A DNA stretch of 61,403 bases, the filler included, from Sluysia triapertura (taxonomy: Eukaryota): the NCBI GenBank assembly GCA_046118255.1. It is 5 parts of 5 records of this genome, joined end to end, with 100 filler letters (N's around TTAATTAATTAA, not from the genome) between each part and the next. Parts side by side here need not be neighbours in the genome. Positions count along the whole stretch, not along the records: positions 50,012 to 61,403 come from JBJNIA010185169.1; 4 more parts are not named here. The stretch is one strand, 5' to 3'. The notes beneath the pieces are model-generated. The model worked only from the letters and a program-made list of their open reading frames with translations, had not been told where the DNA came from and searched no databases. Position 1 is the stretch's first letter, and every line of letters begins with the position of its first letter. The translations under genes were made by a program, and so were the position numbers. This document shows positions 14,409 to 61,403 of the stretch, piece by piece.

Positions 14409-14537
14409 TTAAATTGTACATTATTTAATTGCTTCTGAAATGTAGCGTAATTGGCTTCAGAGAGACAATTCGTTGTAAAAATTGTTGCCTGCATTGGAGG
14501 AAAAGAAAATTATTAAATAGAATGCTTAATATTTAAC

Positions 14538-14836: not shown

Positions 14837-14940
14837 CTGTTCGATTTAAGATAAATATAAAATAAATAAAATGAAATTAATGTCACTCACACACACACAC
14901 ACACTTGTCCAACCTTGCCATTAAAAAATTCAGGAGCATT

Positions 14941-15045
14941 TTAACACGTTGAATGCCATGGGGATTACCGGTGATCGGCGAAGCCAAGATTATTAGAAAC
15001 ACATGCTGAGAAATTCATTTTTGCCAGACGGGCAAACCATGTAAA
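14941..15045 (+). mobile_element. Possible piggyBac-type terminal sequence in CFAP57 intron
   Basis: TTAA followed by CACGTTGAATGCC, similar to the TTAA-CACATT terminus at 18301; partner end not found. Confidence 0.3.
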
Positions 15046-15559
15046 ATTATTATTTATTATTTTTATTATGCTTTATTATTTTTATTTCTTTTATTTTAGA
15101 TACTGTGTTTTGTTTTATTACATGACGAATATCAAAGTGATAGAGTTCTTAAGAGTTAGGTAATAAAAATACGTTTTATTAAAACCTTTTTCAGAGTATG
15201 TTTTTGAATTAGGATGACTTATGGATGAAATCATTCCTCATGTCTAGATCCAATGTAATTAATAAAAATAATTAATAACGATTAGTATTAATAATAAACG
15301 TTAATAATTAATAATTAACGGACATATTGGTTACAACAAGAATGGGATGAATTAAATATACTGGATTACGCTGTTTTCAAGATTGAATATAATAATAAAA
15401 TGATATTCACTAGGTTTTATTGAGCTAATATTATATTGACTAATAAAATTTTGCTAAATGCCAAACCTTGTTAGGTATCATTACTTTTTCTGTAAGAATA
15501 AAAATCGTACTAAGATTCAACTGAAGGTGCTGTAACAAGATAAATTATTAAAAGATAAT

Positions 15560-15690
15560 ATTATCAAAGAAGTAGGACATTATTTTAGGTACATTATGCC
15601 AACTTTACAAGAAATTTCATCAAAATTTTGTGATGTTGAGGTATTCGTACTGCTTGATTCAAAGAAAGGATATCATTAAATTTGGCACAT
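15560..15690 (+). mobile_element. Ty3/gypsy reverse transcriptase relic in CFAP57 intron
   Basis: Translates YIMPTLQEISSKFCDVEVFVLLDSKKGYH*I, matching the gypsy RT motif (YPMPTxEE...FSxLDxxxGYHQI). Purine tract AGGAGGAA follows at ~15754. Confidence 0.65.
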
Positions 15691-16436
15691 TCTAAAGTGA
15701 GAATAATCAAATTCATAAGAAATACGTAATAATGTTTGTGATATGTAATTATGTAGGAGGAATATGGAGAATTCGTTAAAAATTCTTCCTAGTCTGTGAC
15801 TAATTAAACGACTAATTAAAAAATGCTTGTTTTATTCGCTATTTCATTGTTTGTATTGCTGTGTTTGTCAGAGGCTGTCGTAGTTCGAAAGATCAAGGGA
15901 TCGAGATTTTCTGAAGCTTTAAGTTTTTACGGAAAATTATATTTGTTAATCATTGTTAATTTATTATTATTCGGGTGCTAACATTTGTATATGTTGTGTA
16001 ATATAATTAAGGATTATAAGGAGAATGATATATATTGTTATTTTCTTTGTGATAAAGTTTAGAATATATTGAGATTCAGATTCGTTTAATTTTGTTATAG
16101 AATTATTGTCGTTAATTTAAAAATGTAAAAACGCAACAGTATTGTTATTACGCGCACAGTGGAATAATATTAATATCAAATCATTTGCTCCTCAAGGATT
16201 AAGTACTACTAATATTAGTAAGCTGAAAGAAACATAAGAATGAATATCCATAATATGTATACTATTGTTAAAACTGGGATAATTTGTCAAATGATCTTCA
16301 GCGAACAAAATTATTATTTCCCATTGTGTAATTTTCACTTTTAAGAAGATCGTATCTTTTTTATCACACCGAAACTTAATGTATTAATATTTTTTGAAAA
16401 AGTAAAAATAGCTTTTTAAAATGAAATTTTTAATAC

Positions 16437-16638
16437 CTCGATAAACATCCCATTCATAAACAGCTCCATCATTTCCGCACGATATTAATTTCCTATCATC
16501 CTGACTCCAAACTACACATCGAATTTTACCATTGTGTCCTTTTAAACTCCAAACAGATTCAAAAGTTGTAGTTGAATAGATTTCAATCAAACTACTATGT
16601 ACTGCGGCAAAATAATGGCCACCGTTACTGAAAGCACA
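16437..16638 (-). CDS. CFAP57: CFAP57/WDR65 internal exon (3rd visible)
   Basis: CAFSNGGHYFAAVHSSLIEIYSTTTFESVWSLKGHNGKIRCVVWSQDDRKLISCGNDGAVYEWD; canonical AG/GT; phases consistent with neighbours. Confidence 0.92.
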
Positions 16639-16682
16639 CTAAAATAAATTAAATTCAAAAAACATTTATTCATTTAAATTAC

Positions 16683-16848
16683 TTCTCGACATCCACGAAT
16701 AGGAAATTCTTTAAAAGCACGAATATCATCGATTAAAATATTCAATAAACGTAATTTATCACTGAATCCAACTAAAATATAAAGACCAGATGGATGAAGT
16801 GCTACACTATAAGCTTCTTCGGCAAATTCTTTGTATAATTCTAGTCGA
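16683..16848 (-). CDS. CFAP57: CFAP57/WDR65 internal exon (2nd visible)
   Basis: [55 protein letters not shown], a highly conserved CFAP57 segment; AG/GT boundaries; phase 2 in, phase 0 out. Confidence 0.93.
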
Positions 16849-17693
16849 CTGTTTAATAAAAATAAAAATAATAAACATTTTCCTTTAGACTATTAATTGA
16901 GTTTTATTTTTTCTCACGATAATTTATATAAGAGTTCAAAGTTAAATTCGTACCAATTATTTCATACTATTTATATAGATTTTAAATAAATTACACAATA
17001 TTTTAATCAAAGATTACACAGTGACAAACAATGGAATATGCAAGTTAATTTCCTGAACTGATTTGTCTGTGGTTGATACGGGAAGATAAGCAAACCACTG
17101 CTTTAGATAGTAATGTACAGTGTATAGTCATTAAGCCGCGATGACTGGGGTTCAAACTGCTTAACCGGGGCTTAAATATTTTTTTCATCATAATCTTTCC
17201 TCACGTATTGTTTTGAAAGTAGTGTTGCAGTCTCACCATTCTAATATTGCATGCTGCATATAAAATCGTGATTAACGATATTGATTAGCGGCTTACCGGC
17301 CTAACACTGTCACCAAATGTCACACTTAATATCAAAAGCTAATGTATAATCAAGGTGTAAAACAAAAAAGTTTAAGCCGTTTGCAATAGACAACCTTATT
17401 TTTTTAACTAAGCAAATACTAAAATGCAAATGCAGGACGTCAAATAAATAATGATAATATAAATTATCAAGAAACATATATACGAATTTTGAAGAAAATT
17501 AACAGTGAAAAAAGTCCACTTTTATAAATGAAAATAAATTCTTTGAAACTTTTGCAAATTAAAAAAAGTTTATTACAAAAAATTATCATTCAACAAGTAT
17601 AAACTTTGGAAGCAGAATCAAAATACAGGCCTAAAGTTTCATTCAGAATAATGATAGCATAATTGACTATAATAACATAAAATAGTTTAACAA

Positions 17694-17765
17694 GACTGAT
17701 AGCTCAGTTGTCAGAGCTTCGAACTGTAAGGTAAGAATGTTCGGGTTCAGTCCATTTAATGAAGT
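17694..17765 (+). pseudogene. tRNA-derived relic (tRNA-Tyr-like pseudogene or SINE head)
   Basis: GATAGCTCAGTTGTCAGAGC (A box/D arm), CTGTAA (anticodon loop, GTA), GGGTTCAGTCC (degenerate B box); acceptor stem not intact. Confidence 0.5.
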
Positions 17766-18300
17766 CTAACACTTTAACTACTGCTAAATTTCTACAAAAC
17801 CTTTCGTCTGAACACAACAGAAGTTGAAAATGTAGTATAATTGTACATGTATTTTAATAGGACTGTGTGTTATATTTTATGTATATATTTGTTTATTTCG
17901 GTAAAAAACTATGAGAGGAAGAGGGTTAAAATTTCTTTTCTGGATCGATTATAAATGATATCCGAGGTTCATAACTTATAATAAAAGAATCGTCACTTAT
18001 AATAAAAAAGCGACACCAGTTCTGGCTTAATTCATCAGATCGTTGCGTAATAATTAAGAATTAAAATTAATTGTTTAAGGAATTGGTTTTATTATATCAA
18101 GAAAATAAATTTAACTGCAAAACAACTGCACCATGAGACTGTGAACCTAATAGATAAAACAGACAACTGGAGAGTAAATTATTTTATTAAACATAATTAA
18201 TTTGTACTGAATACACGAATAAATAGTAGATCTATTATGACTAGATGTATGTTTAACTGTTCATTTTTATAATCGACTACTGTTCATAATTTATATTTAA

Positions 18301-18512
18301 CACATTTAGGACGGATGACGTAATTCACGTTTTTTATTTTTCAACCGTGGAAACGTGTGACGTTAATTAATATTACTTGTAATTTCAAGTATTATACGTC
18401 AATATCTTTTCATGGTAATATATTATCTTAATAAATGTTACACTGTGTTTTCGAAATTATCACTTTTAATTCATATAATTCAGGCTTTTCATCATACACC
18501 GTCTTCAATGTG
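18301..18512. mobile_element. piggyBac-type MITE (212 bp)
   Basis: TTAA|CACATTTAGGACGG ... CCGTCTTCAATGTG|TCAA: 14-bp TIRs with 2 mismatches, TTAA/TCAA target site. Confidence 0.65.
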
Positions 18513-18634
18513 TCAATATTCAAAAAATTAATACAATTTATTTAATACAATTAATAAAGTACGTATTTTAAAATTAAATCTTTAAAAAATAGTCTATTTA
18601 TAAATAATAAATAATTAAAATTAGAATATTTTAC

Positions 18635-18882
18635 TCGCTTTCATAATTCCATATACGTACTGTTCTATCAGTTGAACAAGTAGCAATAATTGGTTTACGT
18701 TTACAAATATCCAAACCAACAACATCATTACTGTGAAAAGAATACGACAATAAATCGAATCGACCAATTTCGCCACTCTTGGAAATTTCGGAATTAGATA
18801 GTGCGTACAAGTAAAGCTGATTCAGATTTGTACTGATTACAATTGATTCTTCTGACTGACTAATTGACATGTCCGTTATTTG
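18635..18882 (-). CDS. CFAP57: CFAP57/WDR65 internal exon (1st visible)
   Basis: QITDMSISQSEE...FHSNDVVGLDICKRKPIIATCSTDRTVRIWNYE, the CFAP57 hallmark CxRKPxIATCSxDRxxRxWNY; polypyrimidine-AG acceptor and GTAAAA donor. Confidence 0.92.
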
Positions 18883-21602: not shown

Positions 21603-22200
21603 CTATCGTAATATTTTTAAATGTTTTATCCAAATGAGCAGGCGAAACAGCTCCAACATGAACTTCGATTTTAAATAAACTTTCAGTTTCATTTTGAGAT
21701 AAGCTTTACAGGATTTATTTAACTTTAATTCACCTAGAGTAACATTATCGGCTAGTATCCCGCGTAAGATTAATTTTTGATTTAGCACGGGAACATTTAA
21801 TTTTGATTCTAATAACTTATTTACAACACCAGTAGTTAAATCTACTGGCAAATTTTGAGTAACCATTTCTTCGACTTCACCTTCACATGTAGTATCGGTA
21901 ATTGGATTCAATAACCCAGGTTTAAAATAATTTAAATTTTGTAAATTAGAGACATTCAATTTTGGTTCTAATAATTTCTTTAAATCACCAATGGTTAAAT
22001 CTGCTGGCAAATTATGAGTAAACTTGTCTTTAAGATATACTACAGTAAATTCTAAATAATTTATCTTACCTTCGACTTCATTAATGACTTGTTCACAAAA
22101 CGCAATCGCTGCTTGTTCATTAAAAGTAGGATTTGGAGGATTTGTAACCTCATTGAAACGAGTTTCTAACAATTCATCGCCTTTGCTACATATATTAATC
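21603..22200 (-). CDS. Intronless ORF with tandem ubiquitin-like (UBL) repeats, probably retroelement-derived
   Basis: DLTIGDLKKLLEPKLNV and DLTTGVVNKLLESKLNVPVLNQKLILRGILADNVTLGELKL fit the UBL pattern (TVxxLKxxI...VPxxxQKLIxxG..LxDxxTLxxxxL). Nucleotide duplication 21793-21864/21952-22023. The low-complexity 5' part of the tracked ORF is probably non-coding. Confidence 0.6.
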
Positions 22201-22747
22201 TTTTTTATCTTGTTTTTAAAAGTTAAACACAAATTTTGACATACTAAAAATTGATTAGGTAAATAAATTAGATAAATTTTAAAAAGTTTATAAAAACAAT
22301 AAAAATAATTAAAGTAATAAAAATTATAAAAATTATAAAAATTATAATAGAAATTATAAAAATAATAAAGTAGTAAAGGTAACATTGAGAGTGATGATGA
22401 TGACGGTGTGGATGATAATCAGAGGGGAAAGAACTGTGATGTTGATACAAATAATTTTAGTGAGGTTTAGAGTTTGGAGAACATGATTTATAGTTTATGT
22501 TAATGTGGTAAAGTAACAGTAAAGTGAATAGGTTGGATATGAAATTTTATATATTTTGATGGTGACGAAATTATTAAGATAAGACTGACACAACATCGAC
22601 AAAAGGAAAAATAATATAAGAGACAGAGAATTTCTTAAAAGAAAGGTCGGACGTTTACGGATTAATATATTGATCAGAATAACATAATTTAGTTGGAGAT
22701 CAAATATTCTAGCTGATATTAAACCAATTGGACTAAAGCCCATCACT
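22200..22747 (-). mobile_element. LTR-like segment upstream of the UBL ORF
   Basis: Right end GCCCATCACT (reverse complement AGTGATGGGC) resembles the TGTGATGG LTR-type starts; strand-skewed, with short tandem AAAATTATA repeats. Confidence 0.3.
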
Positions 22748-26481: not shown

Positions 26482-26581
26482 NNNNNNNNNNNNNNNNNNN
26501 NNNNNNNNNNNNNNNNNNNNNNNNNTTAATTAATTAANNNNNNNNNNNNNNNNNNNNNNNNNNNNNNNNNNNNNNNNNNNN
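26482..26581. other. Artificial contig-joining linker
   Basis: 44 N + TTAATTAATTAA + 44 N. Confidence 0.97.
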
Positions 26582-30219: not shown

Positions 30220-30634
30220 TTATGATGATGTAAGACTGGGTACGAACTGATACAGAGGAACTGCTGCAGTTAGAAGGACTGCTACATCACGACGCTCTAT
30301 TGCTTCACAAGCCTGAATTAACTTCTGCATACTGGCCTCTTTGCCAGCCCTCGCCATCCAGGCTGCTAGTGTAGCCGCTGTGGGACTAGAAGCGGTGTCC
30401 ATACGAGCCATGAGAGCTTTCTCCAGTCCCAGTTGTAAACCTAAAAGACACCAATCTCTTCCACAGGGGTCCGGAGGATCCATGAGACGACACAACCGTC
30501 TCAGAGCAGCAGACCGTAAATTAGACACATGCAGAGAAGGGCCTGGTCGTAACTGCTGCGCAGCCTGTTCTTCGTTGATGAATAATGCTTCTCGGAGATT
30601 CTTATTCATCAAGCCTGTGAGATTGTCGCTGCAT
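30220..30634 (-). CDS. DAPK1: DAPK1-like terminal exon (death domain)
   Basis: RRLCRLMDPPDPCGRDWCLLGLQLGL...IERRDVA matches the DAPK1 death domain (LDPPDPLGKDWCLLAMNLGL). AG acceptor 30635-30636, phase compatible, TAA stop at 30220. Confidence 0.9.
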
Positions 30635-30719
30635 CTGTTTTAAGGACAATGTTTATTAATAAATAAATAAATTTAATTAGAAAGAGTGTTTAGACGTATT
30701 AATCGAAAATACTGTTTCG

Positions 30720-31110
30720 TTATGGTCCATCAAAAGTGTCGTTTGGGAAAATGTGGCAGGAAGAAGAAAACATCAGTGAGAAGTGATAGATATTTGGTGA
30801 AACTTTCTACGATGAATCGTAAAGCTACCAGCTAGGAAGCAGTTAGAGACTTGCTGAATTGACGTTAGTTCTAGAACAGTCAGAAGAAGACTTGTAGACA
30901 ATGGTTTGCGAGCGAGACAACCCAGAAGAAAGGTTGATAAGTAAAAGGATGATCAGTAAACGGTTGGCATAGGCTAAGCAACACCAACATTTAACTAAGG
31001 ATGACCAGAGTCAAGAGTCGTCCTTTCAAGTACTGAATGATAAGAACACCTTTGTAAGAAGGATACCTACTGAGGTGTTGAATTTTAGTATAATAATTGG
31101 GCCACCACTA
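30720..31110 (+). mobile_element. Tc1-like transposon relic in DAPK1 intron
   Basis: GRKKKTSVRSDRYLVKLS...RTVRRRLVDNGLRARQPRRK (Tc1 GRPR motif and second HTH); ends in TIR-like TTGGGCCACCACT-ATA. Confidence 0.75.
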
Positions 31111-33522
31111 TATTTTATCCAATTATAATTTAAAAAATAATTTGTTTTATTTCGCAACCACTTAAAAAAGGAATGAAATGCACGATTATATTTTATTAAT
31201 AATAATGACCAATAATAATAAAGACCAATAGCATCTACGAAATAAGTAATAAGTATTTAGAGTTAAGACATGTTGTTAGACTTCATAAAATTGACTGATC
31301 GGGAATCGAAACCAGGACTTAATAAATAATACTACCTCTGTTCAAATACTGTGTTTATCTCATTTGACTTTTGTTGCTAACTTAACAATATAATAAGATG
31401 ATAATGAGTTATTTGTTAACGAACAATAGAGAATCATAAAATAATAAAATAATTTTACAAATATAATTTCTGAAATTTGTAATTTGTGGCTGTGTACCAA
31501 CAGATAACCCGGTGTTATTTTTTAAGTCCAAATAACTTTAAATTATGGAAATCAAACGTTCTGGAGTAAATTCAGAAATTTAAGTGACGAGAAGAGAAAT
31601 ACCATCCTGCAAACACAATAGGAAATTGCCAAAGGAACTAGCAATTTTGGAAGCAATTGAAACTGCGCGCAATGTATTACGAGATATGTAATAATAATAT
31701 AATTTCTACTAAAATATTTTCATAAATAAAAAACGCGAAATTGATGTTTATATATAAAACTAACGAGACAATCATTTTTGAATGGAGGTAGTATTTTATT
31801 TAAATATATATTAAATAAATATTTATATCACATAATAGAATAGGTCATTATTATTATTTACATCATTATTTTTAAAAGTTAATTTCCTGTAAAGAGAAAT
31901 TGCATAAATATAATCAATTATGAATCACGGTCAAACTGGCTATGTTAATATATGAGGGTTACAGCTGATGGTATAAGAATAAAGTAAACATTATTGAAGA
32001 AATAATATAAAATAATATAAATGTGTTTATAAAATATTTAAATCAAAAAATAAAGAAAAATGCGAAGAAAGAACCAATTGTAATATGATAAAATAACGTT
32101 ATAATTATTGTGCAATATTTAATTTTATTAGTATTCCTAATGTTGAAATATTTTCGTTATTTTAATTAGTTTTTGTAATATAAAATTAAATTTAAATATG
32201 TTTAAAGTTTAAGTATAATTAAAGTATATATTAATCGATGCTCACTAAAATACCAATTAGGTATGTTATTGAAATCTACGGTTGATGCATGACGTATTGT
32301 ACAATATGCTCCGTAAACTTTATTTTTGGCGTCCCCAACTTAATAAAAAATCATAACGCCACTATAAAAAAAATTCATAAATAAACACCTGTACAATAAC
32401 AAAATGTATTTTGCTGTTTCTTATAAATTAAATATTATGAAAACAGTTCTAATCCTTTAGCAAAAATAAAGAAAAATTAACAAAATTAAATTTTAAATCT
32501 TTATATCAAAAAGGAAATATTATGTTTGTTAATATTTCAATTCTTGAAATATTAATATTTTTTATACGTCGCTGTTATTTAATAGCTGCTAGTTCGCGAT
32601 TGTGATAGCAGTGTCTGCTAACGTTATTTTTAATTAACAGCTAAAAAATAGCAGAATATCAAATAGCATAACATTTCTAGTGCACATGTATAATTGCTTT
32701 ATGAATTTGTAAGTATATTTGCTTTGAAATGTTATTCTTGTTGATTGTTCTACATCAATAACGTAAATTAAGGAATTACTTGAATTGGTAAAAAACAACA
32801 AAGAAAAAACAAAACTTTGTAAAATCTAACAATTTTAAAATTTTTAGCAACCAAAATTATTATCACGCACCTTTTGTCCTAGAGAAAGAAATTTGATATT
32901 TAATTAGTTCTATTTATTTTAATTCTACATATTATTTTAATATCAAAATATTAGTGTAATACTGTTATTAAATTTTGATTGTGTTATGTTTATAGGATAA
33001 GTGGGTTGTTTACTTATTGAAATTGGTTGACTTGTGACCGACTAAAGTGAATATTCATTATTTCCATTTTCCTATGCAACTACTAAAAATTGTAATAAAA
33101 TTAGTCAGAAGAAAAATGTAAAGAAAGTTTCATTTCCATTTATGATAAACACTGTGCTTGAGGATTTATCTTTAGCAATCGTCACAGTCTCTTAAGAAAT
33201 ATTACGATTGTTGCGGTTAGTGATACACGTTTCTTTTTTATTTTGAAATCTTTTTATTGGCCGATTTTCTATTGGTATTGTAAAATAATTGATAGTTTGT
33301 TGTTTCTGTGATATTTAAAATATATCGATATTACGAGTTAATTTAATTGTTGAGTTTTCGTTGGATATTTTGAATAAAGGCACGACACAATCATTCATAA
33401 CGTAAAGAATCGATTTCATTTACAAGTTTACTAATCCTTACGCTACTATCAAAAAATGTTATATTCTGTACATTCGCCATGAAAGATCCTAGAAGCAAGA
33501 AATTATTCAATGATAGACAAAC

Positions 33523-34307
33523 CCGTCCTCCAGAATTGCTCGAGCAACTTCTCCTTGCGAATACAAGTCGAACTTGCGGCTCTGCAGAGTGTCCTGTGTG
33601 ATGTGGCCCATGCAGAATATTTCGTAGTCCATGTTAGAACACATCTCACTAATGGTTTGAGTGACCACATTCACAGTGTCTTGAAAAAAACCAAACAAAA
33701 CCAAAAGAGAGTTCGTGGACAAACTCGATCCAGAAAAACCTTTCACCTCGATTACTCGTCCATTATTCTCCAGGGTCAGCAGAACGGCAATGTCTGGATT
33801 GGCACACATTAACATGGATCCACGAAACCACTGATCCAATGTCGCATGGGGTCCTTCGTCGCTTTGTTCTACAACGCTGTGTCGAAGTTGTGCCTGAATA
33901 CGAGGAATCAAATGAACTGCATGACCAGCCCCCATTAGAATCTGAAGACCAATCCATCTCCCATTATTCGAGCTGAAATACTGATCCAAATTTGGAGATT
34001 CTACGAAGTTTAAACATGGAATTTCATACTGAAATTGGGAGTTATCATCTTCGTTCTCATTATTCTCGTCGTCCAATGACTCAACAGGAACCTCCACACA
34101 AAGTTCCAGAGCTGATAATAATTGCAAAAACGAATCTGGTTCCCTCACACCGAGCATTACTTCAATCTCATCACGAGTAAAACTTCCTGTGACACGTGCC
34201 GAACTTATATTATCGAAGGAAAGCAAGTAACCAATCACATCACTGCATAACCAATTCGGACTGAGTACGATTATATCAGGTTCACTTTCGGTATCCAAGT
34301 AGATCAA
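33523..34307 (-). CDS. DAPK1: DAPK1-like exon (COR domain)
   Basis: LIYLDTESEPDIIVLSPNWLCSDVIGYLLS...LLSALELC...PRIQAQLR. AG acceptor 34308-34309; GTTTGT donor at 33522 gives phase 2, matching the death-domain exon. Confidence 0.9.
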
Positions 34308-34733
34308 CTGAATTAATTGAACAGTTAATTCTAAATGAAATGCAACTTATTCGAACATACTGACTGAACATCACGAAGAACCGCGTTACGAGGATTTACT
34401 AGAGTGAATACACTTAATGAATTTTCAAGATAAATAGTCGGAGTTCCTAAATAATCTCAGATAATGGAAATGTAAGAAGAAATCCCAAGTTATTATTGTT
34501 ATTATTGTTTTATTTCGGGGAGGATACATAATACGAATTGAGAAATTTGATGATTTATGAAATTAATCAAAGATTACGAAACAAGAGATTCGTAAATCTT
34601 ACAAGGGTCTAATGAAGAAGATAGAGTTTTTCCTAGAGCTTGTCTTTATGTGTGTGAAGAGTGATGTAAGGGAGCATCTATCAGCATCTTATTTCAATTT
34701 AATAATGTAAATATTGATAGTCCAGGTACGTAC

Positions 34734-34919
34734 TTCTCCCATATATTGAAGTTGTTGAACCAAGTCTTTCAAATGATCTTCATTGCACAGAGGATTGACT
34801 TTGGACCTGACTCGCTCCACAAATTGCTGCCACGACACACAAGGGAAATCCTGACTTGGAATAAGTTCGTGGATCTTAGAAGCAGTTGTGTCAACCAGAA
34901 GATTGGAGCTTGGAAGTCT
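34734..34919 (-). CDS. DAPK1: DAPK1-like exon (ROC/COR junction)
   Basis: RLPSSNLL...SWQQFVERVRSKVNPLCNEDHLKDLVQQLQYMGE, like DAPK1 QQFVYDVQDQLNPLASEEDLRRIAQQLHSTGE; 186 nt, phase 0/0, canonical AG/GT. Confidence 0.9.
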
Positions 34920-35199
34920 CTGAAATACGAAAACATCAAATTAATAATAACGATATATTTAATAGAAATATGGTATACATTTATGAAACAAATAAAATAA
35001 AACTTAAATTTAACATAAAAAAATTATATTATATACATTTTTTAACAAAATATAATTAAATACAAATTTAATTAAAACAAAATAAATATTTTTCAGCTTA
35101 TCATTCTCGCGACGAAGTTTTGTCTTATTTATATGAGGAAGTTTATAAGAATTTCACCTCTGTTAATATAATCGATTCCATATTAATTATGCATTCTTT

Positions 35200-35420
35200 A
35201 TTTTAGCTAAATTTTCCGCATTTATTTTTCTTTTTGAAGAAACATCGGCACATATTTTACATTCTCTGTATTGAGCATGTGTTGTATGCCAAATTCTACT
35301 TACGTTCAGACGGGTTACTAGAAATACAGCTGCAACTTCATTGATTGCACCTGCAGTATATTTTCTAAGGTATGACGTTCATTTTAAGTTTATCAATTTT
35401 CTTCGGAATTTTCCATTTTC
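35200..35420 (-). mobile_element. Mariner-like transposase N-terminal HTH relic
   Basis: GAINEVAAVFLVTRLNVSRIW...DVSSKRKNKCGK resembles the HTH plus xxKxxCGRK linker of mariner-like transposases. Confidence 0.45.
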
Positions 35421-35608
35421 TTATTTGATTTATCGTAATAAAGCTCTTACTATAAGTAGCTCTTACAACACCTGTCAATTATGTTATGTTATGTGACATT
35501 CAATGCTTACAATACTAATTTAATGAATATTGCTATGTGTTTCGATATTCTCGATAATTTACGATTTTTTTGAAATGTATACCATACTTGATATATTAGA
35601 GAACTAAC

Positions 35609-35723
35609 AGCTACAATCTCAGATCGGTAATTAATGAGGACTGTTCGTAGATGTTTTATTTCTGGAGACACTTTATTGGAGCTATCCACATAAACTATAT
35701 CAGAATGGATGTCGAGATTCAAC
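35609..35723 (-). CDS. DAPK1: DAPK1-like exon (ROC C-terminal part)
   Basis: LNLDIHSDIVYVDSSNKVSPEIKHLRTVLINYRSEIVA; AG acceptor 35724-35725, GTTAGT donor; phases compatible on both sides. Confidence 0.8.
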
Positions 35724-35752
35724 CTGAATTATTAACAGAATATTTATTTCAG

Positions 35753-35985
35753 CATTATCATCATTATTATTATCATCATCATTATCATTACGCCCATTAT
35801 TATTATCAGAATTATCATCATCATCACAATCATCTTCATCATCTTCATTATTATTATTATTATCATTATCATTATTCTCATCATGATCACCACCATTATT
35901 ATCGTCATCATCACCATCATCATTATTATTATCATTATCATCATACCCATCCTAACCATTATCATCGTCATCATTATTAATATTA
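35753..35985. repeat. Degenerate (CAT/TAT)n trinucleotide microsatellite in DAPK1 intron
   Basis: Directly visible; produces the spurious His/Tyr-rich and Met/Ile-rich ORFs. Confidence 0.9.
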
Positions 35986-36005
35986 TACTTATTTTGCAAA
36001 CTCAC

Positions 36006-36195
36006 TGAAGGTCTGATTGAAGCTGTTGAAACATACTCGAAATGACTGGATTGTGTATAATTCCTGACATATTACGCTCTCCACCAATTATATTACTGTG
36101 AGTACCTACCACAACAACCTTGGCAACACATGACGCATTGGAATTAGCAGATTTGTGGAACTTTTCACTACCACTATGATGTCTTGTGTATGCAT
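36006..36195 (-). CDS. DAPK1: DAPK1-like exon (ROC domain, G4 region)
   Basis: AKVVVVGTHSNI corresponds to the ROC VVLVATHAD motif; TTTTTCAG acceptor and GTGAGT donor; phase 2 joins the next exon as DLQ|LNLD. Confidence 0.75.
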
Positions 36196-37514
36196 CTGAA
36201 AAATGAACACTTTTAATGAATGTTATTATGCAAAAGATGGTTTTGGTGTTACCTGCAATGTCCTGCAATTATAAAAAAATTAATTTTAAACGGTAATTAA
36301 ATTATCAGACTTAATTAAAAATAAACAATAATCAAGATTATTTTAAAATAAATAAAAAACAATTAAAAGACAATTAAACAAATTACAAAATAAACAAAAT
36401 TCAATTATGAAGTTAACAGAACAAATAGGAACTACATTATTATTTAAGGAAGAACAAATTTGATACAAAACATATAAATATGTCAAGATATCGTCAAGCT
36501 AGATTTTCAGATTTTCTACTGTTCTAAACAAACAAGCGAGTTACTTATATTATCAATTCCATAACGATTTGTCGTAGATAATGAGCAGTTATTACTATAC
36601 TGATCCACAAGATTGCGGAAACAACATTTAATTTTTTGTTAATTGTAAACTTACTGTAGAGTTAAAATTGACATAAACAGCTAATCATTTTCCACAATTA
36701 GTTTAAACTTATCATAAAAACTATATTAAAATATTTTGTGTGCAATAAATTATTTTTATTATCTTAATTGAATTTAGTAATTTACTCGTGTAAAGTTTTG
36801 TGCAATAAACTTTACGAGTTTAGAAATTTTGATTTAGCAGAAAACGGTAAACTAGGTAAAAAGAGTTTCAAAAGGTTTTGTTGGCCTATCTATACATACG
36901 TCTCCTAATAGGTGCAAAACGTATAGTATAGACGAACCCGCTATAATATTTTGCATAACAAATTTTTGATGAAATGCGTATGAAGTACAGAATATGATTA
37001 TTATTGTAATTTGAATTAGTTTAGAGAGTTCTGATTTATTTAGTGTATTATTGGTTAGAGTGGGTAATATACGAAATTAGGATTTGGTGTTAATTGGAAA
37101 AGAATATTTTAGTTTTTGAATTATATGTTTATTGTATTTGCACAGAGTTTTATTTTAAGTGGTCGAAGTCGATTTTAATGGTTAGTTAATCAGAAAAATG
37201 AGTTGCGTGTCACTACAACATCTGTTGTGATCTGCTATCTCTTATATAATTTATACAAGAATTTGATATATAATTTTTATACTCCACGGTTATCATGCTT
37301 ATGTCTGCGACGGTTCTATGATACTGAATCTTGTATCAATAACAATTACACGGTTTAAGAATTGTATAACCGTCAGAAGAAATCTCAATCTCCGAATAGT
37401 ACCAACTAATCTTGTAATGATGTTGTTTCTCACCGTTATTAATGATAGAAAATCATCAACATCAGAAACCGTATATATATTTAAGAATAATAGATAATTG
37501 TATTTATATCCTTA

Positions 37515-37614
37515 NNNNNNNNNNNNNNNNNNNNNNNNNNNNNNNNNNNNNNNNNNNNTTAATTAATTAANNNNNNNNNNNNNNNNNNNNNNNNNNNNNN
37601 NNNNNNNNNNNNNN
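37515..37614. other. Artificial contig-joining linker
   Basis: 44 N + TTAATTAATTAA + 44 N. Confidence 0.97.
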
Positions 37615-43363: not shown

Positions 43364-43500
43364 NNNNNNNNNNNNNNNNNNNNNNNNNNNNNNNNNNNNN
43401 NNNNNNNNNNNNNNNNNNNNNNNNNNNNNNNNNNNNNNNNNNNNNNNNNNNNNNNNNNNNNNNNNNNNNNNNNNNNNNNNNNNNNNNNNNNNNNNNNNNN
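43364..43500. other. Scaffold gap (137 N, no linker)
   Basis: Plain N run. Confidence 0.95.
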
Positions 43501-49911: not shown

Positions 49912-50011
49912 NNNNNNNNNNNNNNNNNNNNNNNNNNNNNNNNNNNNNNNNNNNNTTAATTAATTAANNNNNNNNNNNNNNNNNNNNNNNNNNNNNNNNN
50001 NNNNNNNNNNN
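49912..50011. other. Artificial contig-joining linker
   Basis: 44 N + TTAATTAATTAA + 44 N. Confidence 0.97.
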
Positions 50012-52290: not shown

Positions 52291-53789
52291 GAATGTGTAA
52301 GGAGGAATTCTTTGGAACTGCGTGAAGTTTATTGTAAAAATCGATATGTAACTTCCAAAATAGTGTGTGGAATTTCCAGAATCTAATCCTCACGATAAAG
52401 TATTGTTTTTTAGTAAATTATATTTGATCTAAGCATTCTTATCCTATTTATATGGAAGTCGAATAGACTATTTAGACTATTTGCATAAAATAACGAATTA
52501 CATAATAATGTTTCAATTACTAATGTTTTTACATAATACTAATTTTTATACATTATTAATATTTATACGATTCATTTGTGATATTTCTAATAACTTTACA
52601 ATATAAATTATTTCTTTATCGTTGTTACCAATTTATTTATTAATTACATAAACAATTTTTACGTAAACACATTTACAATATCTACAATATTTACAATATT
52701 TCCCCATCAGGGAAGATTCGTCTCGAATCATAGGAGTATTGTAAATGAAATAAAAGAATATATAAAACGTAAACACGACGAAAGTTGGTTATAAAGAGTA
52801 AGAATCACCAGAAATCATCAAAAATTGTCCAAGTCTACGTCCGAATCATCAGTCTAAGTCACCGGATCCACGGTACAAAAGCCGTATTCAGTCCGAATGG
52901 TACACGGGTCGGTCGAGGAGAGTCTGAAAATGATATAGGATGTTGTTATGACATTTTTGGTGGTGGCGAAGGCGATGGAGACATGTTTGATTGAAGCGCT
53001 GAAGGTGATGTCGATGTTGGCATGGTCAATGGTTTTTACTGTAGACGATGATGCTAATGGTACTGAATGATAAGCAGACGGTGCCACGAAAGTATTATCA
53101 GGAGTAGAATGAGTAGGAAAAAGTGAATGAGGAATAAAAGTTAGATCTTTCTCACGGATTAGGTCCAGCAAGGCAACTAACTCGAAAGACATCCGTGAGC
53201 ATGTCATTCGAGGAGGTATCGGATAAAGTAATCTAAAAGTCTGTCTGCCCCTTAAGATAGCATTATCCGTAGTATACGATAAGAGGTTGTTGTTGGATAA
53301 ATTAATAAGACCGAACCGAAAGGTAGGTTCAAGTCTCTGATAATAAGACGTGGGTTCAAAGACACCATGATCTTATCGTGAGGATGTCGTCTATATCTTT
53401 TGCCTCGGAAATGTCTGAATCTTTAATTTCCTGAATATCCCGCACGAAGTTTTTAATGCGTAGGCAAGGTATTATGTTTTATCTGTATGGTGTTGCTTGG
53501 AGTATGGAACGCAAGATATTTGAGTAACACGAGGGCGATCCATAAAATCATAAGCGTTTGAATACGCGATGAAAGTCAAGCGGTCCTCATCATAAGCAGA
53601 CATGGGTGAAATATGTCTGCCAGCGTGCTAAATTGGCAGTCTCATCCATATATATAGACTGGTGGATTCGACATATGCATTTGATACAAGGTCAATTCAT
53701 CACAAACTTGGAGAACTAATAGTTGTGGTATAATCATATTTGAACCTGGTGGTATTTTTATAAAACCATATTTACTGTGGATGACCATA

Positions 53790-54085
53790 TCTTCCAGTTT
53801 ATTGATAACATTCATATCCAATATTAGTTCATAGGGGCTGCTATCTCAAACATTTATTATGACTTGTACATATTGTCCTAATACTTCTATATAGCACAAT
53901 AAAGTTCCGTTGATATTTACGGTGTTTGATTAACATTATATATTACCGAACTGGTCTATTTAAGAACACTGATTCCCAGGTAGTTAGAAAGTTTTTATGA
54001 ACCACTGAAATAGTAGCGCCTGTATCTACGATTGCCTTAACCCATCGCCCATTGAAACGTACATTTTGCATTATATGAGCCAAAT
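53790..54085 (-). pseudogene. Second retropepsin-like aspartic protease, downstream of integrase
   Basis: VRFNGRWVKAIVDTGATISV (DTGA at 54015-54026), then NINGTLLCYIEVLG...PYELILDMNVI (decayed ILG motif); absent from the ORF track. Confidence 0.8.
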
Positions 54086-54229
54086 CATTTCCATGAGAAT
54101 GTATCATGTCTCACTTGTTTATGTCGTAGTGCATGAATTGAGGATGGTTTATCTTCATCCTTGTGTTTTGGCTGAATTTTCAATCTAGATTTTTGTACTT
54201 TTCTATTCCTTAAACTATATTCCTCTTTC

Positions 54230-55330
54230 GATGCCATCTTGCATCTATTGACTTGTACTACAAACGTTTCGGAATCAATTTTATTAGGATCATTAACAAA
54301 CACATTTTTGTTATTACATAAGGTCCTTTAAAAGGTTTATTTAACTTAGGTGATTGACCTGGTTTAGTTATTTGATAATCTATTAATACATCGTCAGCTA
54401 TTTTAAAATTGTGTTCTTTAGCTGTTTTATCGTAGGTATCCTTATATATTTGCTGTGAATATTTAATTTGAAGACCTGCTCGCTTCCATGCGTCCTGTAA
54501 TTGTTCCCTCATTGTAGTTACATATTCTGGAATCTCCAAGTAATTTGAAGTTGGAGGATCCCATTCTAAATCTACTGGCATATTAGAGTGTCTCCTGTAC
54601 ATTAAATAAAATGGCGTGAAATTAGTTGGTGGATGTACAGAACTTCTATATGCAAAAAGACATAGTGCTCTATATAAGTCCCAGTGAGTTTGTCTATCGT
54701 TTACATAAGATTGGATCATATTGATGAGAGTTCTATTAAAACGTTCCACTAATCTATCGGTTTGTGAATGGTAAGGCGATGTGTAAATTCGAAGTATATT
54801 AAAAATTTTTGCTACATCGCTAGTACAGTTAGTTCCTTGGTCTGTCAGTAATTTACGAGGCGTACCATATCTGTAGATAATTTTTTCTACCAATATTTGT
54901 GCCACAGTTTCGGCTTTTTGATTGGGCATCGGATAAACCTCTGGCCATTTAGCTAAATAATCCGCAAATACAATAATATTCTTATTACCGTTAATGGTCT
55001 CTGGAAGAGGACCCATAATATCCATAGCGGTAAATTCCATTGGTGATAATGGTACAGGCATGGGTTTTAGTGGTACCTTAGTCTTTTGTCCAGTATTTTT
55101 TCGTCAGCAACATATTAAACAATCCTTGCACCATTTTCTGATATCTGATTCCATATTTTCCCAATAGTATGTGTTTTTGATTCTCGACAATGTTTTTCTT
55201 GTTGATAGATGACCTCCTAATTCTCCGTCGTGAAACTCTATTAAAATAGGTATGATTAATGATTCTGGTATGATAGTTTTCCATTCATCTTTACTATTCT
55301 TAAATCTTAATATCCCATCCATAATAGCTA
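54230..55330 (-). pseudogene. Gypsy integrase (HHCC zinc finger, DDE core, GPY/F)
   Basis: FHDGELGGHLS...CKDCLIC; AMDIMGP, LTDQG, VERFNRTL; FKGPYVI; VQVNRCK; frameshifted. Confidence 0.95.
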
Positions 55331-55494
55331 ATCTTTTTGTTTGCAGTTTATTCAAGGTTCCCTTGGCCAAGGCATCTAAAATAGTCGAGATTTCTTTTTT
55401 TTCTCTCTGATGCTTAATAATCTCTTCACAGTTCTGCATCTTTCCCGATATTGTCATAATTTGTATCAAATTGATATATCACTTATCATCTACA

Positions 55495-55900
55495 TTTGTC
55501 AATCTAGACATACAGTCAGCCCCGTTATTTAGGCTACCTGGCTTATAAACAATTTCCAAATTAAATTCTGATAATTTATTAAACCACCTGTTGAGTCTAT
55601 TGACTTCGTCTCTGTGATTACACAAACATGTCAAAGGTTTGTGATCAGTATACAAATAAACTTTTGTCCTAGCAAATAATGTCTAAACAATTTACATACA
55701 TATACTATTGCTAGACATTCTTTCTCTACAGTCGAATAATTCATCTCTGCTTTGTTAAGTCTTCTACTGGCTTATGCTATGACTGTTCGAGATTATTTTT
55801 ATCTTTCTGACCTAAAATTGCGCAAATAGCATAATTACTGGCGTCCATAGTTAGTATGAAAAGTTTATTAACATCCGGCAATATTAATATTGGCGCTATG
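55495..55900 (-). pseudogene. Gypsy RNase H
   Basis: [63 protein letters not shown]. Confidence 0.93.
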
Positions 55901-56720
55901 GTTAGATGTTCCTTTAGTTCTTTGAATGCTTTTGTCTGCTTTTCAGTCCATTTAAATTCCACGCCATTTTTTGTTACCTTTCTAAGGGCTTGTGCAATTT
56001 TTGCAAAATTTCTAACAAACCTCTTATAACAATTAGCTAAACCTAGTAAACTCTGAACCTTTTTAACGTTGTCTGGTTGAGAGAACTTGATCACGTTTTC
56101 AATATTTCTCGGGTTTGGTTTAATACCATCTTTAGATACTCTATATGTCCTAAGAATTCGAGCTTTTCTTCTTCTCATACACATTTTATAGGTTTTATCT
56201 TAAGTCTGGCAACTTCTAACCTTTTCAGAATATTATCTATATCCTCTAAATGAGTTATAAAATCCTTTGAGAATATTATAATGTCATCTATATATACCAT
56301 GACATTCTTACATCCTGATACTACAAAATTCATGCAACGTTGAAAAGTTGCCGGTGTGCCAGTTAAACCAAAGGGCATTTTTTCTGCTATCTCTATCTGC
56401 CAATATCCACTTTGTAAATCTATAGTTGTAAAATATGTAACATTCCCTAATTTGTCTAACATCTCGTCTATTCGTGGTAGTGAGAATACATATTTTCGAG
56501 TAATCTTATTCAATTCTCTGAAATCTATACAGAATCGTATCGTGCCATCCTTCTTTTTAACGAGTAATACTGGTGATGAAAAAGGAAAGAAACTTGGTCT
56601 TATCACTCCAACCTTTTTCATAGTATCAATTTGATCTTGCATTTCTTTTTGATTACAAATAGGATTTCTGTAAGGTTTCCTTCGAATTACTTTATCCTCT
56701 GTTAGTGGTATTTCGTGTTT
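55900..56720 (-). pseudogene. Gypsy reverse transcriptase
   Basis: SSPVLLVKKKDGTIRFCIDFRELN, DLQSGYWQI, MPFGL..TPATFQR, VYIDDIIIFS; internal deletion and frameshifts. Confidence 0.96.
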
Positions 56721-57239
56721 TATAATTACAGAATCTCCAATATCATATTTGTTTTTTGAAATTGCTCTTGGATACTTATATATAACTTCGTATAGTTGTT
56801 CTTTTTGTTTTTTAGTTAGATTTTTGTTATTAATTTGAATTTCTCCGTAATCTTCTTCTGTGTGTCACGTTGTAATTTTATTGTATTAGTTTTCATATCT
56901 GTCACTGTGTTAATATGTGTTGGTATTTTATAATTAACAATTCTTCCCAATTTAGTGCCTGTAAATAACCATTTATTATCGTTATTATAATTTATAAGTC
57001 GAACGGGTATTTTTTTCTTCACAATTATTACATATTGAATCTGCAATACCTATATCCAGTTTCTGAATCTTTAAACATAATTGGGCCAGTTAATGAACTA
57101 TTTGTTTTTGCTGGGCATTATGTATTCGGTTCTACTTAATAACCACAATGGTTCGTCAACATAAACGTCATCATCGTCGATAGTTCTATTTGAATAACTG
57201 TCCATTCGTTTGACAATATCAAAATCTAGTATTACTCCT

Positions 57240-57480
57240 TTTAGTTGTGATAGTATATCCATTCCCAGTATCATGTCTTCTGGACATTTTTTTGACTCTC
57301 AATTTTACGTCAACTTTACTCTGTCCTATTTTGCACACAACCTTCATTACTCCAACAATGTGTATGGCATCTCCAGTTACTCCTGATAAATGTGAAAAAT
57401 GATTTGCAAGGTTTCCTTGTTCCTTTTCTGTCAATTGTTTTCATTAATTAATGATGTTACTGCTCCTGTATTATCATATA
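57240..57480 (-). pseudogene. Canonical (pre-RT) aspartic protease, decayed
   Basis: NTGAVTSLIN (57461-57472; D to N at the catalytic site), flap LSGVTGDAIHIVG, and EDMILGMDIL in a shifted frame. Confidence 0.8.
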
Positions 57481-57679: not shown

Positions 57680-58926
57680 GTAACAAATACTTTGCGTTGT
57701 TACTGGTTCTAAATAAGTTTCTATTTTTCCATATATTATTGGTAATTCATTTAACTTCCACTTTTTTATACCTATAAGTGTGTAGTACTTCTTCCGTTAA
57801 TCTACAAATACGCCTTCTTCTAAGGGTAATAATTGTGCAACCAGATCGGGATTTGTTATGACTACTGCCAGTTTTGTACGTAGTATTTCTTTGTTCAGCC
57901 GGCAATCCCGAGCATTTATAATTTGATAAATTTTTTCTAAAGACATAAACACAAGATGATAGTAGAAGTCTGTCTTATTATTAAAATAACTATTTAATTT
58001 TATATTTTTTGAATCTATTCCTTCTTTGGCCTGTAATATTGTTTTTTCAGAAAGGTAAATACCTTGATATTTGGTTTCGATAATTTCATTTCCAAATCTT
58101 ATTATTGTTCCTTTTGATTTGAAAATTAATCCATCTTCTTTTTTACTGGCCATCATAATGGTAGGAGTTCCTATTTAATCTAATGTTTTACGTTGTAGTT
58201 GTTCCTTTTTGTTTATTTCTTCAATTGGTAGATCATCATTATTCTGGTAGACAAATCCGGATGCTAAATTTGTTTATTTGTTTAAAAATATTAAAGGACA
58301 CTGAAACTTATCCAATTCATATATTAGAGTGGTTTCACTTGTATCACAACTTGTTTGATCCATTTGGCAAAATGATCTAGACATCAATGTGTTTTTTTCA
58401 ATATCAAAACTTTCATTAAATGATTTCATACTTACTACAAAAGTTTCTTGAGCTACAACATTGTTATATTTTTTTTCCTTCATATTCTATAGATCCTTGT
58501 TCGCATGTTCCATCTGTCAGCACGTTTCCGGTAGTCCTAATATTATAAATAATTTTTTCATTATTTCTTACTCTTAATTTATCTCCTTCAACCAATCCTA
58601 TATATCCGGTCTCGAAAGCATCTCTACAATTATTCGGTAAAATCTTGAATGGTTTTAATACATGCGGTAACTCTATTATCGATGAATGACTATGGTGTCT
58701 ACAATATTGCCACTGATCTTTTTACCATACATTCTCTAACCAGTGCTGTTATCAAATTTCCTTCTTGGTAAACACTAAAGACTTTAGTTTCTTTTATCTG
58801 GATTCTAATGGGTCGAGATTCCGAGCAGTCTTCCGTATCTAGTAATGAGAACTTCTTGCCAACTTGTGGTTGATTACAATCAAAAGCTTTTATTGAACCA
58901 GATTTGTTTATATCAAACATAGCCAA
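57680..58926 (-). pseudogene. Envelope glycoprotein of chuvirus type (predicted class III/gB-like), C-terminally truncated
   Basis: Ordered motifs AFDC..FSLLDTEDC, ECMVKRS, YCRHHSHSS, CRDAFETG, GNVLTDGTC, NNVVAQ, YFNNK, DCRLNKEIL...NPD, EEVLHTY, NELPI match the motif order I recall for Chuviridae glycoproteins (GYDC..LSLLDVGEC, YCGMHSH, DGxC, NVVVQ, YxNSK, CxLERQxL, GEVxH, CYNELPV). Confidence 0.8.
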
Positions 58927-58931
58927 TATTA

Positions 58932-59400
58932 TTATCCTAATCGTGGTATAGCTGTATTTAACATATTATTGTTTCCGAATAAGTTTGTAAATAAATTTGA
59001 TGTTTCTTTGAGTTTTTGATTCTCTTTTCCTTTAATTATATCTCTCCATCCTCCTTGTTCTTCAATCCATAACTTTGTTTTCTTATTAACAAATGCTATA
59101 ACCTTATTTACTTTATTCTTATCAATTATCCTTTCCTTATTACATTGAAACACGGTGTAAGCTAAAATTATTTTAAATCTTTCTCTATTTATCTCCTTAC
59201 TAAGTTTTTTTATTAAATATTGATTTACACTGTCCATTCTCTATAAAATTACCAACTTCTTTGTCCTTATATTTCTCCTCTAATTGTTTTATAAGTTTTA
59301 TTATTGTACTCTTATAGTCCTTTATTTTGGGTAATAATTTCTTATATTTACTGAAGTGTGTAAACGTATTAGATAGAAACGCATAGACTACATTTTTTGT
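58932..59400 (-). pseudogene. Bcl-2-like domain
   Basis: BH2 WIEEQGGW (59046-59069) preceded at Bcl-2-like spacing by a decayed BH1, EINRERFKIILAY (consensus NWGRIVALFxF); upstream helices frameshifted. Confidence 0.7.
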
Positions 59401-59679
59401 ATCTAATTCTAAAATTTCTTCTTCATTTTCGTCTATTATTTAATTGTCAAATCTATAACGTTTTTTCGAACAGTATATCTTCTTCATTTTTTAATTGTAT
59501 TTGTTTCCTTGTGGCTGGTTTCAATGTGTGGATTTTTGTTAAGATCCACTATATAATCAGGTTCTTCTATTGTGTCATTATTTTTAGTTATTTCATTATC
59601 ATTTTCATCCATTAATTGTCTTAAGAATGACTGATATATTTTCGAATAAGGTTTCATATTGGGTAGTCTTGTTGGTAGT

Positions 59680-59900
59680 AACAGCTTTTATTAGTTTCTC
59701 TTGGTTCCCTAATGGGTAACCATAATTGTTAAGAATGTCTGTAGGAATTAAATATCTGTTATCATAGAATAAGTCCACGTTCGAAATTGATGGATCATTC
59801 GATTTTATTATGTTAATAATGTCTTGAACCAAAGAATTTACTGATAATTCCATAAAAATATTGATAAGTCCATTTAATGATATATTAATTTTCATTAACA
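59680..59900 (-). pseudogene. Ubiquitin-like domain
   Basis: MKINISLNGLINIFMELSVNSLVQDIINIIKS..VDLFYDNRYLIPTDILNNYG follows the ubiquitin beta-grasp pattern (MQIFV..ITLEV...TIENVK..I...LIFAGKQLEDGRTLSDYN). Confidence 0.6.
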
Positions 59901-60392
59901 TACGTGGATCAGTTTTTCTTTCCATTAATGCAATCTTTTTAAATATCTTTCTTGCTTTATATTGATGAGGGTTGCTGGATTCACTTAATATAATCAAGCT
60001 TGGTTTGATACTCTGTGCATTAAACATATTTTTAAACATCTAAATTCAAAATTTTATCCAAATTTTTATCTATAAAAGTCATCATTTTCTAATTCAGTAA
60101 GAAATGCCTTTATCTCTTCAATCAATGATGGTTCTGGAGTATCCATTTTTCTTTGGTTATCCAAGTCAACTATTTGTTCTTCCTCTTCATTACCTAATAT
60201 AATTATTGAATCTAAATCTTCAATTATATCATCGACTAGGTCATCTTCATTAATTGACTCATCTGTTTGGGTGGTTAATTCTTCTTCGTTTATTGTGTTA
60301 TTATCTTTTCCCATCTTCTAATAATTGCATCGACCTTCTTATTTTCTTCTTCTATCTCTTCCGTAGTTATTTTCTGTTGTTTTTTACTACTC

Positions 60393-61000
60393 TCAACGTT
60401 TTCTTTTTATCTTCATACTCCTTTTACGAAAGAAGTAATTGATGAACGTTTCATCCTCGTCTTCTTGTTCTATCTTTCTCCTTTCTTCGTTTATATCCAT
60501 ACAATCTAGTTTTGCTCTACGAAACTCACGTAACATTTCTTCTTCTTCATATGTTAGTCTTATTGGATATTTTTCTAAACCAAAGTCTTCATAATCTTCA
60601 TCATAATTACAATTTATCTGTCGCTTGTCTTCAAACTTTACTTTTATTGGACAACGTTGTCTGTTTTTATTGAGATTTTGTTTGAAGGTTTCGGATTTCA
60701 ACTTGTTGAAATTGCAGGCATAGTGTCCTGGTTTGTTACAGTTATGGCATATTATTTCTCCTTCGGTATTAGTTCTTGTTTTGTAATTATTATAATTTGA
60801 TCGGAAAGAACTTTTACTTCTATCGAAATTATTTCTTTGTCCATCATTACTTGGCCATCTGGGAGAGGGTCGTTGCTTGTCATCTTTAGAACCATTGTTC
60901 GAATAATTTTTGGCAAATCCCTTTGTGGCCCTTCTTGAATTTTGATAGTTTATCTCTGAATTCTGATTATCTCTTTCTGTTCCTGAATTATGAAAATTAT
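60393..61000 (-). pseudogene. Gag C-terminus with nucleocapsid zinc knuckle, followed by an acidic/charged region
   Basis: N/R/S-rich linker then RTNTEGEIICHNCNKPGHYACNF (CX2CX4HX4C with the last Cys lost, 60708-60749), in frame with ORF 60393-60701. Confidence 0.8.
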
Positions 61001-61403
61001 TTATTTACTTTATTTTAATTTTTACTTAAAATAATAAAATAAAAAAGATTACCACATGCATGGACCTTATGTTCATTGCGGGTAATATTGTGTGATTGTA
61101 CCACTATGTTGTAAAATTTTTAAATTTTTCATTTTATACTCTTTCATAATCCCAAGTCTCACAATCAAATACTCTCTCACACAAATCATCAAAACTTCTT
61201 TGAGAATTAAACCGGTAATAACAACTTTGACAATTACATGGTACGGTCAGTCAAACATCGTTATGTACAAAACACACGAATATGATTTATTATCAACCAT
61301 AATTTTCTTTTCTTTAATCAATCTATTTGTTGGGATTAGTAAAGAATAAGGGTTGATAGAAGGGTCAAAACTTAGGACTGCAGTGTCAGTGGAACATTAT
61401 TAA

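Follow-up and report, generated by a model that had tools for sequence, protein, structure and literature searches.

The retroelement and its genomic surroundings

The window, that is, the whole 61,403-nucleotide stretch of Sluysia triapertura DNA analysed here, is AT-rich animal DNA and carries intron-split WD40 and death-domain genes. Exons recognised by Pfam as WD40 occupy 14526-18882 on the minus strand and read like a motile-cilia gene, putatively CFAP57/WDR65, an identity that would speak against a nematode host. A death domain (30223-30639, minus strand; Pfam E=1e-17) lies within a set of exons at 30220-36268 (minus strand), the rest of which would presumably belong to a DAPK-like gene. 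On the same strand, 21603-22418 holds a ubiquitin-like fragment (Pfam E=2.2e-5), with an internal duplication apparent by eye. The runs of N at 14309-14408, 26482-26581, 37515-37614, 43364-43500, and 49912-50011 gave rise to spurious repeat families in the repeat search.

From 61.0 down to 54.1 kb, the minus strand is occupied by a decayed Ty3/gypsy element with the order gag, a questionable ubiquitin-like domain, a Bcl-2-like domain, a chuvirus-type env, protease, reverse transcriptase, RNase H, and integrase (Table 1). Three env fragments match the Monjiviricetes fusion protein in Pfam (E=2e-4, 1e-7, and 6e-10); the C-terminal part of env was not found in the window element, and, from env through to the protease end, the window copy falls short of the relative L006 by about 290 codons. 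Pfam gives no match for the main protease, and 57280-56915 (minus strand) aligns with the relatives by tblastn at 24-28%. Compared with the intact relative L004, the element shows nine collinear matches, with seven frame changes and 10 stops in 1,430 codons. The window contains no long direct repeat that could be read as an LTR pair, and it stops about 400 bases beyond the gag remnant. The location of env between gag and pol was considered as a nested insertion or rearrangement, a reading that was rejected, as unbroken relatives and the literature show the same order.

In one public run, 20,449 contigs fall on the window at a likeness of at least 80%, and the bin holding the Bcl-2-like domain has a cover similar in depth to that of env and pol. 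This indicates that the element belongs to a high-copy family, with contig depth taken as a rough measure and from a run that may itself be the source of the window. By far the highest summed depth in that run is found at 61106-61403, which may be the terminal region of the element or some other high-copy repeat. Beyond the second protease remnant there is a GC-richer open frame of 172 aa (52854-53372, minus strand), for which Pfam gives no match. Extra copies of the aspartic protease, either downstream of the integrase or ahead of the main protease, are seen in the window (53747-54101), P0005, P0007, and L004, and the clade appears to shuffle its protease modules.

Table 1. Parts of the retroelement in the window, in minus-strand order.
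Feature	Positions	Strand	Basis
Gag remnant with CCHC zinc knuckle	60393..61004	-	zf-CCHC E=0.0037; matches P0122 residues 201-458
Possible ubiquitin/SUMO-like domain, 144-aa frame	59605..60039	-	Atlas leads to PF11976 (Rad60-SLD) and PF00240 clusters at 0.87
N-terminal piece of the Bcl-2-like domain (BH4- and BH3-position helices, by position and by eye)	59203..59439	-	different frame
C-terminal piece of the Bcl-2-like domain (BH1- and BH2-position helices and tail)	58932..59240	-	Pfam Bcl-2 E=0.017; leave-one-out profile
BH1-position segment INRERF, without NWGR	59175..59192	-	alignment with relatives
BH2 motif WIEEQGGW	59046..59069	-	GG in 8/8, GGW in 7/8 aligned sequences
Hydrophobic segment before env (predicted signal/anchor)	58909..58947	-	env frame; Kyte-Doolittle 1.8 over 13 residues
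Chuvirus/gB-type (Monjiviricetes fusion) env, N-terminal part only	57698..58935	-	three frames; Pfam
Decayed aspartic protease and PR-RT spacer (dUTPase-like position in Burro)	56915..57475	-	protease motif by eye
Reverse transcriptase and RNase H, frame-broken	55655..56864	-	Pfam and collinearity with relatives
Integrase (H2C2 and rve)	54258..55664	-	Pfam
Second aspartic-protease remnant downstream of the integrase	53747..54101	-	E=9.4e-6; likewise in relatives P0005 and P0007

The Bcl-2-like domain of the window copy

The C-terminal piece of the domain is a 102-aa stop-to-stop frame that contains both the BH2 motif and the segment at the position of BH1. The N of INRERF lies 45 residues before the first G of GGW, in one frame and with no intron needed. 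The preliminary description, which had proposed an intact BH2 and a suitably spaced BH1 within an intronless frame of a retroelement, is borne out in these respects, gypsy gag, env, and pol parts surrounding the domain. Across all six frames, the window contains the pattern W-x4-GGW only once, and none of 200 composition-preserving shuffles contains it; the pattern for this test was picked only after the motif had been seen.

Upstream of this frame, the helical sequence is carried on by a 79-aa frame. Since this N-terminal half sits in another frame, the Bcl-2-like domain is broken near 59240, and there is a second frame break in this copy, the signal segment of env lying in yet another frame. 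The window copy is a pseudogene, encoding no intact protein, and it is almost certainly non-functional.

The faint Pfam scores obtained for this copy indicate a motif that is real but weak on its own. The Bcl-2 family of Pfam (PF00452) matches the 102-aa frame at its BH2 end only, with 16.1 bits against a gathering cut-off of 31.4, and a read-through of the two frames, with an X at the break, gives E=0.015-0.024, with the window scores at 16.1-16.3 bits likewise below the cut-off. The identity of the frame as Bcl-2 rests on its relatives. Protein searches with the 102-aa piece returned no homologues, and the Atlas gave no usable match. In phmmer searches of the PDB, the only match of the 102-aa piece is BOK (E=1.9), and the only one of the read-through is BCR (E=0.53). 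The single-sequence model of the read-through has nine helices and a pLDDT of 49.8, and fold searches with it retrieved generic helical bundles and no Bcl-2 match.

Relatives of the element and position of the domain

A search with the window integrase returned 215 proteins; identity is 56-60% for six and at most 45% for the others listed. The cluster of one of the matches includes P0122, an unbroken polyprotein of 3,735 aa with capsid, knuckles, env, protease, reverse transcriptase, RNase H, and integrase, which is collinear with the window element, as are L004 and L006. These three share with the window a clade of nine rows in the integrase tree (support 100/98), which was built from 38 of 122 rows, namely the 8 closest and every fourth of the remainder.

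A DNA pattern for the N-terminus of env led to 11 metagenome loci, of which 7 are true env relatives and 4 (L001, L003, L007, and L008) are chance matches. One of the true relatives, L011, was excluded, having just 49 bases upstream of the env motif, and the relatives in which the domain could be sought are therefore seven: L002, L004, L005, L006, L009, L010, and P0122. The env-based scans of viral_contigs, the first metagenome scan, and the first genome scan gave no matches, and both genome matches, L012 and L013, were discarded as chance.

In all seven relatives, a helical domain with GGW or GGL at its end is located shortly upstream of the env motif. The frame from the domain to env is uninterrupted in five of them; in L005 the frame is shared but a stop intervenes, and in L009 the domain is frame-shifted. 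The domain is contained within unbroken reading frames in P0122, L006 (3,184 aa), and L004 (3,175 aa, cut at both ends).

Where the window has its 144-aa frame, a ubiquitin-like domain is seen in the relatives (Pfam E=4e-5 for L005; the profile matches ubiquitin-like PDB entries). The window frame itself has no Pfam match and obtains 1.6 bits from the leave-one-out profile, a score equalled or exceeded by 142 of 964 shuffles, and its candidate status as a ubiquitin-like domain is a lead only. By eye, P0122 shows two ubiquitin-like repeats (residues 533-605 and 828-905) upstream of its Bcl-2-like domain, as does L005, and also an AT-hook-like KRGRPRK motif around residue 1023, for which L005 is listed as well. 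Elsewhere in these polyproteins, residues 3320-3670 of P0122, the C-termini of P0002, P0006, and P0007, and the region between env and reverse transcriptase in L004 appear by eye to be flanked by hydrophobic segments, resembling a second cell-surface protein inside the polyprotein; Pfam gives no match above cut-off for P0122 3320-3670 and its counterparts.

Motif conservation, sequence profiles, and predicted fold

The eight domain sequences, from the window and the seven relatives, have a median pairwise identity of 20%. In BH2, GG is present in all eight and GGW in seven, whereas the first W is found in one, and the full W-x4-GGW is that of the window. NWGR is absent from the eight sequences: its G is kept in four, a basic residue occupies the position of R in five, and W is found in none. 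The register of BH1 in the window shifts by 4 residues relative to the relatives from one alignment to another. The preliminary description had regarded BH1 as decayed in this copy and had suggested looking for NWGR in sister copies. As no relative has NWGR, that reading was rejected, and BH1 has instead diverged across the whole family; as for WxxxxGGW, whose conservation was also at issue, it is GGW and not the first W that is kept. Because of the general absence of NWGR and the low median identity, the function of the groove has possibly changed. The missing NWGR and the Pfam scores below cut-off are also the reasons to classify the domain as Bcl-2-fold and not as a canonical pro-survival Bcl-2.

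Searched one at a time, two of the seven relatives match the Bcl-2 family of Pfam, at E=2.2e-5 and 0.028; neither reaches the cut-off, the better score being 25.4 bits, and the other five give no match. The profile of the eight sequences retrieves 117 PDB sequences at E of at most 10, the best 60 of which are all Bcl-xL or Bcl-2 (best E=1.9e-5). This signal is partly circular, since the segments of the relatives were excised around the GG anchor, and for this reason the search was rerun without BH2 and without the window. The top of the four matches then obtained is FPV039, the viral Bcl-2 of fowlpox (E=0.025). With a leave-one-out profile made from the seven relatives, the C-terminal piece (58935-59240) ranks first of 1,228 window ORFs (E=3.1e-4, the next being 0.54), and the read-through obtains 16.2 bits over profile positions 12-136, a score reached by none of 997 scored shuffles; the N-terminal piece alone gives E=4.6.

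The AlphaFold model of the L005 domain, based on an alignment of 7 rows that include the natural C-terminal piece of the window, has eight helices and a pLDDT of 76.5. When it was compared with known structures, rows 1-35 of the best 50 were all Bcl-2-fold proteins, and unrelated proteins start at Z 5.9. The best match is HyBcl-2-4 (Z 14.0, rmsd 2.6 Å, 134 of 135 residues aligned). In a Foldseek search against the PDB, all listed rows belong to the Bcl-2 family, the best with E=1.6e-3 and none at E of 0.001 or below. Thus, as modelled on the relative L005, the domain is predicted to be a divergent Bcl-2 fold, and its identity as a Burro-like Bcl-2-fold domain is very probable.

Pfam and structure prediction had been proposed as checks of the "retrotransposon-encoded Bcl-2-like protein" announced in the preliminary description, and both gave a divided answer. 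The window and its relatives remain singly below the Pfam cut-off, but their common profile matches Bcl-xL and Bcl-2; a relative folds as Bcl-2, but the window's own model finds no such match. The proposal gains a fold, through the model of a relative, and a position upstream of env shared by all testable relatives, and it has to be amended in that the feature is one domain of a large polyprotein, not a gene of its own, and is present here as a pseudogene.

Putative function and alternative explanations

The fold leaves the direction of action unfixed, since the pro-apoptotic proteins BAK (Z 12.2), BAX (11.9), and BOK (11.6) score among the pro-survival ones (11.3-14.0) in the comparison with the L005 model. 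The reading towards which we lean, with moderate confidence, is that intact relatives encode a divergent viral-type Bcl-2 that would hold off the death of the host cell during replication of the element, the window being a pseudogenised Burro-like copy. The putative anti-apoptotic function of the intact copies, taken by itself, has in our estimation slightly better than even chances.

Alternatively, the Bcl-2 fold might serve a purpose other than apoptosis, for instance the blocking of innate-immune signalling or of autophagy, in the manner of vaccinia A52, A46, and B14 or of the herpesviral Beclin-1 binders. The three vaccinia proteins are found, together with M11-Beclin, among the fold matches of L005, with Z between 6.6 and 9.8; the loss of NWGR and the low identity among the eight sequences would also agree with such a change of role. 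Even so, we consider it unlikely, given that the best fold matches, at Z 12-14 and well above A52, A46, and B14, are cellular and viral BH3-binding proteins, that the domain is followed by a putative membrane tail, and that Burro, according to the available part of PMC6431247, also has BIR domains, another apoptosis module.

A structural role in the particle is a further alternative: as a helical bundle close to the membrane, resembling a matrix protein or Bax/Bak, the domain would link Gag to the anchor of env or reshape the membrane in budding or release. Its fixed position directly before the signal segment of env in the seven relatives is what such a role would predict, and the fold matches to BAK, BAX, and BOK are roughly on a par with those to pro-survival proteins. 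However, linker length is variable, between 30 and 74 aa, and insect and other envelope-carrying gypsy elements have been described without such a domain ("Bcl" is absent from the main text of PMC13524379), which makes this role distinctly improbable. Lastly, a chance GGW, or a host gene fragment captured once by the window copy, would account for the weak single-sequence scores, the empty protein searches, and the lack of any direct BLAST alignment to the P0122 domain beyond QxGGW, but it is very hard to sustain against the shared position in all testable relatives and a contig cover of the Bcl-2 region about equal to that of env and pol (a rough measure), and is largely refuted by the leave-one-out profile, with its rank and shuffles, and by the fold matches of L005.

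For the putative death inhibitor of the intact relatives, the region between the domain and env suggests a way of reaching the membrane. Six relatives were examined, and in each the linker of 30-74 aa from BH2 to the env motif contains a hydrophobic segment (Kyte-Doolittle 1.3-2.9); the segment of L005 is located behind a stop and that of the window in another frame. This stretch could act as the signal peptide of env and as the tail anchor of Bcl-2 at once. In that case, the Gag, ubiquitin-like, and Bcl-2 portion would be kept in the cytosol, env would enter the lumen, and the own anchor of env would bring Pol back to the cytosol. Signal peptidase and the protease of the element would then free a membrane-anchored Bcl-2 protein, which may bind host Bak/Bax or BH3-only proteins without NWGR, as proposed by analogy with poxviral M11L, F1L, and DPV022. 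Poxviral Bcl-2 proteins without canonical motifs still bind pro-apoptotic partners, as stated in the part of PMC11209288 available. A broader proposal is tentative, and we regard it as somewhat doubtful: a working Bcl-2, anchored by the env signal peptide, would be encoded by a deep, envelope-carrying retrotransposon clade that is wider than the described Burro giants and more compact. If it holds, one translation product would yield capsid, tail-anchored death inhibitor, fusogen, and Pol, all with the right membrane topology.

Comparison with known systems

Errantiviruses with the order GAG-ENV-POL and an env of the HSV/gB type were reported from Nematoda, Bryozoa, and Platyhelminthes by Chary and Hayashi (PMC13524379, consulted in excerpts). 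They have the same gene order and the same env class as the window element, and the main text of that paper contains no mention of Bcl-2 or ubiquitin domains. By eye, the window env shares YQE, VREC, NC-x2-AF-x-T, DGTCE, FC-x-M-x-Q-x2-C, and cysteines with the env of six Schmidtea rows given in that work's supplement 2, as far as this was accessible, and it is far less like one bryozoan and one insect row.

The closest description is that of the planarian giant gypsy elements Burro/GYPSM1 (Jurka 2007; Grohme et al. 2018, both as cited in PMC6431247). According to the accessible portion of PMC6431247, env in these elements is mononegavirus-like and lies in frame between gag and pol; the other parts named are the knuckles of Gag, domains resembling Ubi2/SUMO and dUTPase, and a BCL2-like motif. 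There, Arkhipova and Yushenova (2019) name Grohme et al. (2018) as the source for the BCL2 motif, mention decayed copies in Dugesia japonica, and propose interference of Burro with host apoptosis as an unconfirmed possibility. The feature had thus already been reported for planarian Burro elements. The accessible parts of PMC8532177 and PMC13238120 add nothing further on Bcl-2, and no functional or structural study of the retroelement domain was found in open-licence PMC and bioRxiv, although Grohme et al. (2018) may give more.

The elements described here share with Burro the CCHC Gag, the ubiquitin/SUMO-like and BCL2-like domains, an env between gag and pol in one frame, the order protease, reverse transcriptase, RNase H, and integrase, and a high copy number. 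In P0122, L004, and L006, a single unbroken polyprotein places the BCL2-like domain between the ubiquitin-like domain and env. By contrast, Burro polyproteins reach 4,873-5,140 aa, against the open 3,735, 3,175, and 3,184 aa of P0122, L004, and L006, respectively, and contain MATH, BIR, and SMC modules, none of which is found by Pfam in these three. Ankyrin repeats are present in another member of the clade, P0007, and the spacer between protease and reverse transcriptase is conserved in the relatives at about 125 aa, with no Pfam or relevant PDB match to a dUTPase-like domain. The window copy, in turn, is broken, internally shortened, and without a detected LTR pair. Since a search of the three long relatives gave no giant ORF with BIR, MATH, and SMC, the element is classed as Burro-like and not as Burro, which was compared by description and by eye.

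The locus itself is ordinary, because the concept has been published at the motif level for Burro and the window copy is dead. The present analysis adds the predicted Bcl-2 structure and a single conserved position across seven divergent relatives despite the loss of NWGR, as well as a wider clade of more compact elements, a hypothesis of membrane topology, and small natural domains that make the apoptosis question testable. These bear on the question left open in PMC6431247 (available part) of whether Burro-type elements meddle with host apoptosis.

With the Bcl-2 mimics of dsDNA viruses (FPV039, A179L, KsBcl-2, M11L, F1L, and DPV022), the domain has in common a predicted fold of eight helices, eroded BH motifs, and a C-terminal hydrophobic tail, here recognised by hydropathy. 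It differs from them in being part of a retroelement polyprotein, known from sequence and model, whose tail would double as the env signal. Should the anti-apoptotic reading be right, this would represent a Bcl-2 mimic of apoptosis control in a reverse-transcribing virus lineage instead of a dsDNA virus.
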